From a virus, in the IMG/VR virus record IMGVR_UViG_3300049434_000028, positions 1 through 64,000 of that record: a stretch of DNA of 64,000 bases; one strand, written 5' to 3'. Positions 2,740 to 46,234 of the stretch are shown in pieces. The notes under the pieces are model-generated. The model was not told the origin of the DNA. It saw only the letters and a program-made list of their open reading frames with translations, and ran no database searches. The translations under genes were made by a program, and so were the position numbers. Position 1 is the stretch's first letter. Each line of letters begins with the position of its first letter.

Positions 2740-2945
2740 GACTTCTCCCCCGCGGTGCTGTCGGTCTCCCACGATCCGACAGGCTTGGTCCGCTCGACGA
2801 CCAGGATCTCGAACTCCTCGGTGACGTCGAACTTCTCCAAGGCCTCGATCATCCCGTTGCCCAGGTCGCGGTACCGGGTGACGACATAGACGCGATTGCT
2901 CAGGCCACCGCGCATCAAGTGAGGAGGCTGTTTCTTACTGCCCAT
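2736..2945 (-). CDS. hypothetical protein
   Basis: 69-aa ORF in a coupled operon. Confidence 0.6.
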   Translation of the reverse strand: MGSKKQPPHLMRGGLSNRVYVVTRYRDLGNGMIEALEKFDVTEEFEILVVERTKPVGSWETDSTAGEKS

Positions 2946-3120
2946 CAGATCTCACCTCAGTGATCCAGGAGATACGGTCGGCCCGCTCAGCCAGAACGAT
3001 GAACGGCACGGTGTGCATCGGACCCTTGCAGAACACGACGAAGCCAGGCTCGAACATGACGTAGTCGGCCTCGATCTGCGTGTTGTCCCCAGCATGGCTT
3101 CGGTACAAGAACGTCCTCAC
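2935..3120 (-). CDS. hypothetical protein
   Basis: GTG 3120 overlaps the upstream TGA. Confidence 0.6.
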   Translation of the reverse strand: MRTFLYRSHAGDNTQIEADYVMFEPGFVVFCKGPMHTVPFIVLAERADRISWITEVRSDGQ

Positions 3121-3323
3121 AGCTTCTCCTTCGCCCGCAGCACGGCGCACACCGCGTCAGCCTCGTCGATCGACTCGTAGCCGTCGGCCTTCGTACCCCT
3201 GGCCCAGGTGCGCGTGTGGTGGTCGATCACCGTGTAGTAGTACCGCTTCTCGACCTGGCACCACGATGACTGCACGGTGTACCGCGGCAGCGCGGCCTTG
3301 GTGCGCCGACGAATCGTGGTCAT
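3117..3323 (-). CDS. hypothetical protein
   Basis: ATG 3323 (MTTIRRR), ATGA coupling. Confidence 0.6.
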   Translation of the reverse strand: MTTIRRRTKAALPRYTVQSSWCQVEKRYYYTVIDHHTRTWARGTKADGYESIDEADAVCAVLRAKEKL

Positions 3324-3829
3324 GAGCCGCCCGCCCAACGGTTGCTGCGACGCTCCGGCGCCTCCCGATCGACGCGGCGGGTCAGCTCACGGGAGACGAC
3401 GGCCGCGTCTCGCACGAACGCCTCATGCCGAGCCTCCAGCAGCTTGCGGTAGGCGTAGGCGTCGAGCTGCTCCTGCCGGTACGCAACTACGTCCTCGTCC
3501 TCCTCCATGCGGGCCTTGGCCAGGGTGACGCGGTCCTCCTTGCCGCCGGTCCACCCCTTCACTACCGCAATGGCCTTGGCCTTGTCGTAGAGCGTCTCAG
3601 CCGCGCGCTCGTCGATCGCCGCCATCGCCAACTGAGCCCCGGAGTAGTCCGCCCAGCGAGTGAGGAGCACTAGCAGGCTCATCAGCTCGCTGTCGTCCAG
3701 ATCGGTTGGGTCGGCGGGCAATTCGGGTTCGTCGCTCGGTCTCTTGGGCAACGTCAACGACCGCTGCGCGGCGCGTGCTCGTGCGCGCTCCGTTTCCTCT
3801 GCGTGCTTCAACCGTGGGTTCCGAGGCAT
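3320..3829 (-). CDS. UvsY-like recombination mediator (putative)
   Basis: 169-aa all-helical pattern (W..Y..AQL...KAKA...D.DV...Q....AY.KLLE...A...SR) resembling T4 UvsY; same operon as RecA and the gp32-like SSB. Confidence 0.5.
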   Translation of the reverse strand: MPRNPRLKHAEETERARARAAQRSLTLPKRPSDEPELPADPTDLDDSELMSLLVLLTRWADYSGAQLAMAAIDERAAETLYDKAKAIAVVKGWTGGKEDRVTLAKARMEEDEDVVAYRQEQLDAYAYRKLLEARHEAFVRDAAVVSRELTRRVDREAPERRSNRWAGGS

Positions 3830-9699: not shown

Positions 9700-10701
9700 T
9701 TAATCGTCGTCATCCATGGCTGTGCGTGCAACGGCGTTCAGCTCCGCACGCGGCACGTACCGCACGTACTTGTCCTCGGTCACCATCTTGGAGTCGAACG
9801 CGTCCAGCTCGTGGTCCTTGAGCGGGGGGATCCCCCACTCCTCCTTCAGGTCACGCGTGCGCACTACGTCGATGTCGTAGGTGGTCGCGCCCTTGCCACC
9901 CTTCGGCTTGGTCTTGGAAACCGCGTAGTACTCCTTGCTCAGCGGGCCAGTCTTGGCGGCGGCCTTCTTCTCCAGGATCTGCGCGATACCCGGACCGCAC
10001 GCCCACACGAAGAGCTGGGGGTCGGCGTCCTCCTCCAGCAGCAACACGTTGAACGCACCCACCGCCCGCGGAGAGTCGCCCAGCTTGTCGCACAGCGGGC
10101 ACTTGGACTCCAGGCAGGTGTAGCTACGCAACCCCTTGGGCGTCATGATCCAGTGCTGCCCGAAACTCGCGAACGGCTCGTCGTCCAGGAACTTGATCAG
10201 GATCTGGTCGTCGTCCGGCACCTTGAGGTCATTGCTGAAGCTGCCCATGGTCTTTCGCTTCTTGTTGTACGTGTTCCAACCGGCCGAGGACTTCCGCTTG
10301 CGGGGCTCGTCGTCCTCGTCGTCCTCGTCTTCATCCTCGTCGTCTTCGTCATCCTCGTCGTCGTCCCGTGCACGGCGAGCCGGGCGCTTGGGCTCTGCAC
10401 GACCCCGAGAGCGGCTACGTGCCGGGGGCTCGTCCTCTTCGTCATCCTCGTCTTCATCGTCCTCGTCGGCGGCGGCACGGCCGCGACGGCGAGGGGGGTC
10501 CTCGTCCTCGTCGTCGTCCTTGGCGCGAGCACGCCGGGAGGACGCAGGAGCGGGCTCCGCGTCGCGCTCACGACGTCGCCGGGCCCGCGGGGTCTCCTCC
10601 TCGTCGTCGTCATCGTCCTCGACCGCTGGCTTGCGGTAACGGTCGGCGCTGGGTGCCGGACGATCGTCGCGGCTGCGGCGACGTGCGGGGGATGCCATCA
10701 A
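9700..10701 (-). CDS. gp32-like single-stranded DNA-binding protein with a long N-terminal mixed-charge disordered region
   Basis: IKFLD...QHWI...TC...CPLC...FNV...TTY core with H/C/C/C Zn ligands, acidic C-terminus; first ~140 aa are D/E and R blocks. Confidence 0.75.
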   Translation of the reverse strand: MMASPARRRSRDDRPAPSADRYRKPAVEDDDDDEEETPRARRRRERDAEPAPASSRRARAKDDDEDEDPPRRRGRAAADEDDEDEDDEEDEPPARSRSRGRAEPKRPARRARDDDEDDEDDEDEDEDDEDDEPRKRKSSAGWNTYNKKRKTMGSFSNDLKVPDDDQILIKFLDDEPFASFGQHWIMTPKGLRSYTCLESKCPLCDKLGDSPRAVGAFNVLLLEEDADPQLFVWACGPGIAQILEKKAAAKTGPLSKEYYAVSKTKPKGGKGATTYDIDVVRTRDLKEEWGIPPLKDHELDAFDSKMVTEDKYVRYVPRAELNAVARTAMDDDD

Positions 10702-10991
10702 GTTCTCCTCTTCCTGGTCCGTGAACGATGCTCCGTGAAGCTGTCCAACAGGACCGTCTGGTCTGCGGTGGTCAACTCGCGTGCTTCCTTGATCTCTCCG
10801 GCGAGCTGGCGGTCCAGGATCTCCATCACCTTGTCAGTGAGTTCCTGCACCAACTCGTCCACCGGGATGTCGTGCGCCTCCTCATCGGTGTACCCGAGGT
10901 CGCCGTGCTCCAGGGTGACCGTGCACCCGAACTGGAAGTGCTCATATTGGGACATATTCACCTTGAACTGTCGCGTTCGGCTAATCCGCAA
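10698..10991 (-). CDS. hypothetical protein
   Basis: TTG start, MRISRTRQFKVNMSQYEHF. Confidence 0.7.
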   Translation of the reverse strand: MRISRTRQFKVNMSQYEHFQFGCTVTLEHGDLGYTDEEAHDIPVDELVQELTDKVMEILDRQLAGEIKEARELTTADQTVLLDSFTEHRSRTRKRRT

Positions 10992-11436
10992 GGCGCACCC
11001 CCTTCGTCAACAGCGCGGTCACCCAGGTCTTGCTCACGCCGTACATGCGTGCTAGCTCAGCCTTCTGGCCCCGGACCCCGGTGTACGCAGCACGAATCTG
11101 CGCTACCTGCTCGTCCGTCAGCTTGTGCCTACCGTGCGCCTCGTTAGTCAGCCGAGGTACGTAATGGCGCTCCGGGTGCCGCGCCATCATGTCGGCGAAG
11201 TTGTCCGCGTGCGTGCCGAGAAGTAGGTGCGTCGACTCCCGGCAGGGCGGGTTGTCGCAGGTGTGCCGAACAAGCATGCCGTCTGGGACAGGCATCCCGT
11301 TCGCCTCCTCCCAAGCCATGACGTGCGCGCCGCGCACCTTCTTCTGCGCCGGATCCCACTGCTGGCCGTGACCGGTCTTCTTGCTGCAGAACCCGGTCCA
11401 GGGCAGGCATGGAGCGTCGGTGCGGCTGATCCTCAC
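10981..11436 (-). mobile_element. free-standing HNH homing endonuclease with C-terminal HTH
   Basis: CLPWTG...AH..AWE...VRHTCDNPPC...HLLLGTHADN..DM, followed by KLT..QV..IR...ELARMYGVS. Confidence 0.9.
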
Positions 11437-11903
11437 AGGCGGCCCTCCTTCTTCAACTGGCGGAACAGCTCGGTGACACGCTCACTGAACTGGGTGGCAC
11501 CGACATTTCTGCCGTCGAAGAGGCCCTCCTCCCGCGCGATGCGCCGCATGCCCTCCACCTGCGCCCGCGTCCAGAGCCTCCGGGAGCCCTTGATGGACAC
11601 CGCATTGATGCGAAACCGCGCCTGCGGGATGGTGCCGTACTCGATCCAGCGCCGGATGGTGTTCGACGACCGGCCGAGCGCCTGCGCCACCGCGCCCACG
11701 AAGAAGAACTCGACCAGCTCCCCGTCCACCTTCTGCATGTACGGCGAGGAGTCCCAGCGATCCTCCTCCGGCGGCGCCTCCGCGGCCTTGGCGGCCACTG
11801 CCTTGCGCTTGCGCGTGCTGCCGGGATAGTTGTCCCCCGCCAGCTCCGCGAACGCCGCCTCGACGCTGCTGGCTACTTCACCTCGCGGGGGACGAACGCC
11901 CAC
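11433..11903 (-). CDS. MerR-like HTH DNA-binding protein
   Basis: VGAVAQALGRSSNTIRRWIEYGTIP...RRLWT. Confidence 0.8.
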   Translation of the reverse strand: MGVRPPRGEVASSVEAAFAELAGDNYPGSTRKRKAVAAKAAEAPPEEDRWDSSPYMQKVDGELVEFFFVGAVAQALGRSSNTIRRWIEYGTIPQARFRINAVSIKGSRRLWTRAQVEGMRRIAREEGLFDGRNVGATQFSERVTELFRQLKKEGRL

Positions 11904-12415
11904 GACACCTCCTCGGCGAACATGGCGTCGATGTCATCGGCGGTGAGAGTCGGCTCGGGGGAGTCCTTCTCGCTGAAGTACAGCGCCATGATCTTGTCGT
12001 CCGACAGGCGCTCGGTGACGGTGACTACCTCGTCGTAGATACGCGCCTTCTTCAGCACCGCGATCACCAACGGCATCTTGTCGGCGTCGATCGTGATGTC
12101 GACATCCGTGCACGCCTCCAGGACGCCCTTGGCCTCCAGGATCTCGGTGGCCCTGTCAGGATCCAACAACACCTTTGCGCGCCGCTGCCTGCAGACCGCC
12201 GTGAAGCCGCCGATCGGCTCGTCGAACTCCAGCCACAGGGAGCCCTTGTCGTCCGGCTTCCCGGCCCGCTCCAGGATCCCCATCAGCTTCTTCTTCAACT
12301 CGCCGCTGCGCGACTGGATCGTCTTGATCATCGCGCGGTGACCGCCGAACTCCGTCAACAGCGGCGCCAACTCCGCAAGGGGGTCAGCCTTGGAACGCCT
12401 GGCAACGCGGGTCAT
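11873..12415 (-). CDS. hypothetical phage protein (first gene of the leftward operon)
   Basis: 180 aa, GGAGG SD; coiled coil followed by DDKGSLW. Confidence 0.8.
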   Translation of the reverse strand: MTRVARRSKADPLAELAPLLTEFGGHRAMIKTIQSRSGELKKKLMGILERAGKPDDKGSLWLEFDEPIGGFTAVCRQRRAKVLLDPDRATEILEAKGVLEACTDVDITIDADKMPLVIAVLKKARIYDEVVTVTERLSDDKIMALYFSEKDSPEPTLTADDIDAMFAEEVSWAFVPREVK

Positions 12416-46103: not shown

Positions 46104-46234
46104 GGCGTGCTCGGGCTCTCAATCGCCCGCACGGGCGTCTTGGCCAGGCTGCGCTGGTACAGGACCATGCTGCGGTTGGCCTTGTACACGTCCGGGCCGA
46201 ACTGCTGAGGCTGGAGGTTGTCCGCTGCTGCCAT
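46100..46234 (-). CDS. 44-aa hypothetical protein (probably leaderless)
   Basis: MAAADNLQPQQFGPDVYK...; TACGCT -10 box 7 nt upstream of ATG; GTGA-coupled to the next gene. Confidence 0.65.
   Translation of the reverse strand: MAAADNLQPQQFGPDVYKANRSMVLYQRSLAKTPVRAIESPSTP

Follow-up and report, generated by a model that had tools for sequence, protein, structure and literature searches.

An HNH_3 homing endonuclease probably resides, as a free-standing cassette with neither intron nor intein, in the 5' end of a small conserved gene of a phage replication module. The start region of this target gene is present twice at the locus. The original ribosome-binding site, GTG start codon and first six codons remain joined to the upstream HTH gene and now open the HNH ORF. 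A second ribosome-binding site, start codon and set of first codons lie within the last codons of the HNH ORF and open the complete target gene.

Layout of the locus and its two start regions

The window, meaning the whole stretch of DNA analysed, is taken from an IMG/VR virus record that is 102,797 bp long, has 65% G+C and ends in direct terminal repeats; it covers the record's first 64 kb. Around the HNH ORF, overlapping genes form a leftward operon in which every gene is on the minus strand. The order is a 180-aa gene (11873-12415), an HTH (excisionase/MerR-like) gene of 156 aa (11433-11903; Pfam HTH_17 below the cut-off, phrog_66), the HNH_3 endonuclease ORF of 151 aa (10981-11436), the target gene of 97 aa (10698-10991), an SSB-like gene (9700-10701), a 125-aa gene and DNA polymerase I. 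The TGA stop of the HTH gene (11435-11433) overlaps the GTG start of the HNH ORF (11436-11434) as GTGA, and the coupling of the HNH ORF to the upstream gene was thus read as it had been in the original prediction. The TTG start of the target gene (10991-10989) is located 11 nt before the HNH stop, and the target gene is overlap-coupled to the SSB-like gene as TGATG. With starts and stops overlapping in this way, the HTH gene, the HNH ORF, the target gene and the SSB-like gene thus form a relay in which each passes translational coupling to the next. Neither a promoter nor a convincing terminator belonging to the HNH ORF or the target gene was found at the locus. RNA structure was supported at neither start (z-scores of +2.0 and +0.5), and an Rfam search of positions 10500-12000 returned no match at E <= 1 and no intron.

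The HNH ORF was assigned to Pfam HNH_3 (PF13392) with 38.0 bits against a cut-off of 24.8 (E = 1.3e-9; residues 36-79, positions 11200-11331), and it matched PHROG endonuclease families down to E = 3e-18. The residues H58, C60, N62, C65, H70 and N79 of this catalytic domain were invariant in an 11-sequence clade alignment; no solved structure close enough to map them was found. The only domains detected were HNH_3 and a C-terminal HTH-like region, and the ORF ends at a stop of its own. A full-length protein can be started only from the GTG at 11436, and there is no in-frame alternative before the conserved core.

Read on the minus strand, the HNH ORF and the next gene both open with MRISRT, as predicted, at 11436-11419 and 10991-10974 respectively. 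The two copies differ by five nucleotides, one in each of five of the six codons, and all five differences are silent. The probability that five random changes would all be silent is 5.6e-4. This agrees with the earlier proposal that the target gene had been given a second, synonymous start region. Over the whole genome, approximately 10 million pairs of candidate starts were compared and a shared hexapeptide was found in 27, which corresponds to a chance match of about 3e-6 per start pair. Close pairs on the same strand were limited to HNH/target and a pair formed by two short ORFs of 54 and 59 aa (50298/50520, plus strand). The use of A/T-ending codons as far as about codon 16 of the target gene had also been put forward as a sign of recoding. 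The run itself was confirmed, with six such codons in codons 2-16 where the genome averages 2.3 per 15, but 7.5% of internal 15-codon windows equal it. It was therefore dropped as evidence, being statistically not unusual.

The duplication had been described as present in the protein and absent from the DNA. This did not hold. Local alignment of 160 nt around each start, with shuffle controls, identified a diverged repeat of approximately 48 nt (-27 to +21) on either side of the HNH body. The alignment score was 39; shuffled sequences scored 16.2 +/- 2.2 with a maximum of 29, and 0/2000 reached 39. Each copy spans a Shine-Dalgarno sequence, a start codon and six codons. The left copy (11463-11416) contains AAGGAGG at 11450-11444. 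The right copy (11018-10970), inside the 3' end of the HNH ORF, contains the Shine-Dalgarno-like AAGGGGG at 11004-10998, six bases upstream of the TTG. Relative to the left copy, the right copy lacks one base at the start codon and with it the TGA, so that the HNH frame continues for three codons. Upstream of the start (-27 to -1), the copies match at 22 of 26 positions, and the last residues of the HNH protein, LTKGVRL, are in the same frame as the HTH protein tail LKKEGRL. Since a Shine-Dalgarno sequence is required in both copies, convergence may account for part of the upstream similarity. The C-terminal tail of the HNH protein also resembles the tails of other members of its clade.

The target family and its HNH-less relatives

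A search of 5.8 billion proteins returned four relatives of the 97-aa target protein. Three of these begin MRISR[TS]R, and position 13 is Leu instead of Met in one of the three. When 1.84 billion representatives were searched with a profile, 108 clusters were returned, nearly all of which aligned from residue 1. The N-terminus is conserved across the family as M-R/K-I-S/T-R-S/T-R..F.VN-M/L-GNYE. In an AlphaFold (AF2) model (pLDDT 85), residues 2-13 are predicted to form the first strand of a beta-hairpin, which leads into a long helix. At this locus, the public gene call (P0001; 10698-10955, 85 aa) starts from the codon-13 ATG and omits the conserved beta-strand. Because the N-terminus is conserved in the family and residues 2-13 lie in the hairpin, the TTG at 10991 is likely to be the true start and the public call to be 12 codons too late. 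The AF2 model gave no significant fold match in PDB or BFVD, and the protein had no match to a Pfam or PHROG family. In the representative search, 14 separate stretches of a 2309-aa protein (P0139) matched the family profile; therefore the small domain also exists as a long tandem array.

Codons 14-18 of the target gene (10938-10952), just 3' of the probable ancestral insertion point considered below, encode SQYEH where the family consensus is GNYES. Position 14 is Gly in 83/111 family members and Ser in 3/111. The rare S14/Q15/H18 combination of the window lineage occurs also in P0002 and P0003, and its association with immunity from cleavage is only a suggestion.

DNA and protein searches of the locus against GenBank phages returned no relative of the target gene, and none was present in GTDB genome contigs. 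Scans of IMG/VR with the target protein returned nothing close, and a wider alignment added only L085/L086. Metagenome contigs carrying the target family together with the conserved neighbours were L002/L003 (one phage), L004 and L085, all of which lack the HNH ORF at this site. In L004, orthologues of the 180-aa gene and the HTH gene are followed directly by the target gene, whose GTG start overlaps the HTH stop as GTGA and whose product begins MRITRSR. In L002/L003, the HTH stop and the target ATG overlap as TGATG, and L002 runs on to the SSB-like gene and the polymerase. The HTH orthologues are 55% identical to that of the window in L004 and 37% in L003. The SSB-like gene follows the target gene in L085 as well as in L002. 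The gene order in L085 is the same, with a hydrophobic mini-ORF of 23 codons at the junction between the HTH and target genes. L085 is a more distant syntenic phage, and its mini-ORF (2930-3001) is coupled by overlaps to the genes on either side. The HTH/target junction appears to be a recurrent insertion point.

Since the HTH gene overlaps the small gene directly in L004 and L002/L003, the native state is one in which the two are coupled to each other, and the HNH ORF therefore sits on the native start and its coupling. That the HNH ORF took over this coupling had been predicted, and the HNH-less contigs bear it out. By comparison with them, the GTGA junction in the window would be the native junction, now leading into the HNH ORF. 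A TTG version of the start was present in none of the HNH-less relatives. The left and right copies of the first six codons are identical to L004 at 13/18 and 12/18 nucleotides respectively, and the relatives are too distant (none above 80% nucleotide identity) for these values to separate the two copies. Presence of the HNH at this one site is patchy: it is absent from L002/L003, L004 and L085 and is found in the window and, judging by the protein tails described below, in the genomes of P0007 and P0008.

Endonuclease homologues and an independent case

The nine nearest full-length homologues of the HNH protein (52-65% identical) came from short Logan/ENA contigs. GenBank phages contained only distant HNHs, at most 43% identical, and GTDB genome contigs had no match to a back-translated clade-specific HNH motif. 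All nine homologues start with 9-13 residues of the target-family N-terminus, placed ahead of a conserved Cys-x-x-Trp motif. The extensions vary with the target sub-lineage and match particular family members at 12/13, 9/10 and 9/13 residues. A target-type extension is absent from P0015 and from HNH_3 homologues at 47% identity or less. The original prediction allowed that MRISRT might simply be the normal N-terminus of this HNH family. Formally this is the case for the closest clade, because the whole clade occupies this one site; the distant HNH_3 proteins are without the extension.

Insertion had been placed after codon 6, and HNH-less relatives were expected to show the flanking parts of the target gene joined there. 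The relatives do show the HTH gene joined directly to the small gene, but the position has to be revised: retention of 9-13 target residues by the nearest homologues places the probable ancestral junction after codon 12-13, at the hairpin turn, and the copy in the window would be a trimmed one. Extension lengths across the clade are 13, 12, 10 and 9 residues, with 6 in the window, and the start is always retained. As a series of sequences, this fits a fragment whose initiation signals, and not its peptide, were the reason for its retention.

The tails of two homologues carry a trace of the second copy. The tail of P0007 is codon-compatible with a +1-shifted ATG ORF in which 11 residues equal its own N-terminus; in P0008, 6 residues do so. 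In controls, 215 other proteins gave a maximum of 3 codons, and shuffled tails gave maxima of 6 (P0007) and 4 (P0008). Judged from their coding capacity, the two tails can only be explained by a putative overlapping downstream gene beginning MRISR.., and the 1140 bp contig that was the source of P0008 was also the source of the family member P0004, which begins MRISRTR. Counting the window, the tails would thus bring the genomes with the two-copy overlapping layout to at least three, all sharing one frame offset. For P0007/P0008 the right-hand start is inferred to be ATG; in the window it is TTG, a difference of one base.

Many free-standing HNH_3 proteins (homologues P0017-P0125) have F-W-x-[KR]-V-[DN] 7-10 residues before the Cys-x-x-Trp motif. 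The shorter pattern [KR]-[VI]-[DN], at the same distance, was found in 19/84 native HNH_3 N-termini, and the F-K-V-N of the target family is at an equivalent distance in the fused clade. Because the native pattern resembles the KVN of the target, the original in-frame join may have made use of KVN-type microhomology, which is speculative. A second HNH_3 gene of 165 aa (101116-101613, minus strand) is located outside the window near the right end of the genome, and has no N-terminus in common with its downstream neighbour.

A total of 80 IMG/VR loci with more distant HNH_3 proteins were scanned for peptides common to the HNH start and the region after the HNH stop. One true case was found (L036), and 0/396 control pairings reached 6/6. 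A further candidate (L035) was false and consisted of tandem HNHs. In L036 (IMGVR_UViG_3300033072_001141, positions 2908-3797), an unrelated upstream gene, an HNH_3 gene and a 124-aa gene are joined by ATGA overlaps. The target gene is a different one. The HNH_3 protein and the product of the 124-aa downstream gene are alike at 10 of their first 13 residues. In the HNH-less L088 (2400-2860), the upstream gene leads straight into the target gene by GTGA. Against the L088 allele, the HNH-fused copy of L036 matches at 27/27 positions and the working copy at 20/27, with flanking genes that are 75-77% identical. Compared in this way, the displaced copy resembles the element-less allele and the working copy appears foreign. 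The 27/27 identity points to recent transfer rather than old co-descent.

Origin of the duplicated start and related systems

For a cassette of this kind, the enzyme would cut uninterrupted target alleles near codons 13-18 and the conserved VNMGNYE codons. Repair of the double-strand break would then copy the HNH gene together with its replacement 5' end, and the cassette would spread. The displaced native 5' end would persist only as the supplier of a start for the endonuclease, which would explain why its distal codons decayed (from 13 to 6) and its start was kept. The silent differences between the copies could represent the spelling of the donor, protection from self-cleavage, a reduced loss of the cassette through repeat-mediated deletion, or a mixture of these. 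They fit a donor allele brought in with the cassette and cleavage resistance equally well.

The working copy may alternatively have been recoded de novo, with selection at every silent site against cutting by the resident enzyme, as had been proposed from the five silent changes in six codons. The rare G14S/N15Q/S18H cluster immediately beyond the ancestral junction on its 3' side, the repetition of a native-like left copy and a respelled right copy in L036/L088, and the precedent of the yeast WHO elements, which work in this way (PMC7282806), all speak for this. The same pattern is expected of a co-converted donor allele with no special selection, as the fungal mORF hybrids have been read (PMC3630166), and of selection against repeat-mediated deletion. 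The excess of A/T-ending codons is not significant, and SQYEH is found also in P0002 and P0003, whose genomes may or may not carry the HNH. We regard de novo recoding as possible but doubtful. A cassette that entered once, long ago, and has since been inherited vertically as a domesticated or fossil gene would no longer be homing, and its duplicate start would be kept for expression. The GC3 of the HNH ORF equals that of the genome (0.83 against 0.84), which makes the gene either an old resident or an arrival from a similar phage; it could be domesticated. Long co-descent would also give a diverged clade (52-65%) whose extensions track host lineages, as is observed, and silent sites are close to saturated between the two copies. 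Against this are set the patchy presence and absence among syntenic relatives, the invariance of the catalytic positions and the L036 displaced copy, which is identical throughout to an HNH-less allele in a phage that is otherwise 75-77% identical. Loss of homing after a single old entry was accordingly considered unlikely.

Two further explanations concern the peptide and the annotation. If the N-terminal peptide were retained on both proteins for a role of its own, for example as a docking strand, the copies would be expected to be separated by silent differences only, as they are; the target protein model has a defined beta-strand at residues 2-13, and other neighbouring genes of this genome have N-terminal motifs in common. 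The HNH extension nevertheless shortens across the clade (13, 12, 10, 9, 6), and docking by half a strand is improbable. The DNA repeat extends upstream of the start and takes in the ribosome-binding site, and the HNH-less relatives show that the start belongs to the target gene. A shared functional tag was on these grounds judged very improbable. Least credible of all was a coincidence arising from mis-annotation, in which the target gene would start at the codon-13 ATG and the TTG-MRISRT stretch would be non-coding. The public calls P0001 and P0002 do start at codon 13, and AAGGTG lies ahead of that ATG. The 12 preceding residues are conserved family-wide, even in members that have no Met13, and constitute half of a confidently modelled beta-hairpin, and the chance of a hexapeptide match at a given start pair is in the order of millionths, as given above.

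The preferred reading, an intron- and intein-less homing cassette in the target 5' end, was compared with three known systems. Fungal mitochondrial mORFs form 'gene hybrids' with atp6 in Allomyces macrogynus and with atp6, atp9, cox2 and nad3 in Glomus (PMC3630166). As in the window, two copies of one gene end flank a free-standing endonuclease ORF, which can be in phase with the host gene (PMC3630166). The working copy of the mORF hybrids is foreign, with mostly silent differences, and the displaced copy matches the element-less allele (PMC3630166), as is the case in L036/L088. The mORFs are located at 3' ends, encode LAGLIDADG or GIY-YIG enzymes and are found in organelles (PMC3630166), whereas the window has an HNH_3 enzyme at the 5' end of a phage gene. 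In the window, unlike the mORFs, the displaced fragment is not dead, and the endonuclease obtains from it a ribosome-binding site, a start codon and its translational coupling.

The WHO ('weird HO') elements of the yeasts Torulaspora and Lachancea are neighbours of FBA1 (Coughlan et al. 2020, via PMC7282806). They are described as being, like the window cassette, adjacent to their target gene and free of intron and intein, with a partial gene duplicate left behind (PMC7282806). A WHO element swaps the end of the gene for a version that its enzyme no longer cuts; this resistance was tested for WHO6 and is hypothetical for the window. The WHO elements differ, in that description, in being carried by a nuclear genome, in acting at the 3' end, in having an intein-derived LAGLIDADG enzyme with a zinc finger and in leaving FBA1 fragments that are pseudogene debris (PMC7282806).

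The free-standing HNH and GIY-YIG homing endonuclease genes of T4-like phages, including MobE and the Seg proteins, carry out intronless homing (PMC2988022, PMC2790892). They contain no introns and spread by double-strand-break repair with co-conversion of the flanks (PMC2988022, PMC2790892). Several have no initiation region of their own and overlap the upstream ORF (PMC2988022), as does the HNH ORF of the window. The AUG of mobE overlaps the nrdA stop, which suggests translational coupling (PMC2988022). These genes are described as lying between genes or splitting genes, and the review mentions neither a duplicated gene end nor the in-frame capture of a neighbour's first codons, the terms 'duplication' and 'duplicated' being absent from its text (PMC2988022). 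In the window, the known elements of coupling, a foreign working end and end replacement would come together in a phage and at a 5' end, where the displaced fragment serves the endonuclease as its own start. No phage report of such an arrangement was found in the literature searched, which is weak evidence of absence.

Compact phage operons with overlapping genes contain no neutral insertion site. The window case shows how a homing endonuclease with neither intron nor intein can enter a conserved coding sequence. By doubling of the start region, the old copy expresses the endonuclease and the new copy keeps the target gene alive. The HNH clade at this one site provides a natural series, with extensions of 13 to 6 codons and right-copy starts of ATG or TTG, and the cassette provides a candidate endonuclease paired with a candidate target site. 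Duplicated starts mislead gene callers, as with the public call of the target gene that begins 12 codons late. For phage phylogenies and recombination maps it is relevant that gene starts adjoining HNH ORFs may be of foreign origin.

Start-region duplication could also be a general route by which any new gene enters overlap-coupled phage operons. An incoming ORF would fuse to the resident start, and a spare start would be made for the resident gene. The unrelated mini-ORF at the HTH/target junction of L085, and the two gene runs described next, prompted this idea. We consider such generality quite unlikely.

Elsewhere in the genome, two runs of neighbouring genes on the minus strand, with starts at 2407/2739/3323 and at 46234/46103/45795, have common N-terminal peptides that are spelled differently and begin at GTGA/ATGA-type starts. 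The peptides of the two runs are MT[TV]I[KR]RR and M[AS]A..[NH]L. These runs may be traces of start-region duplication or may be functional motifs.
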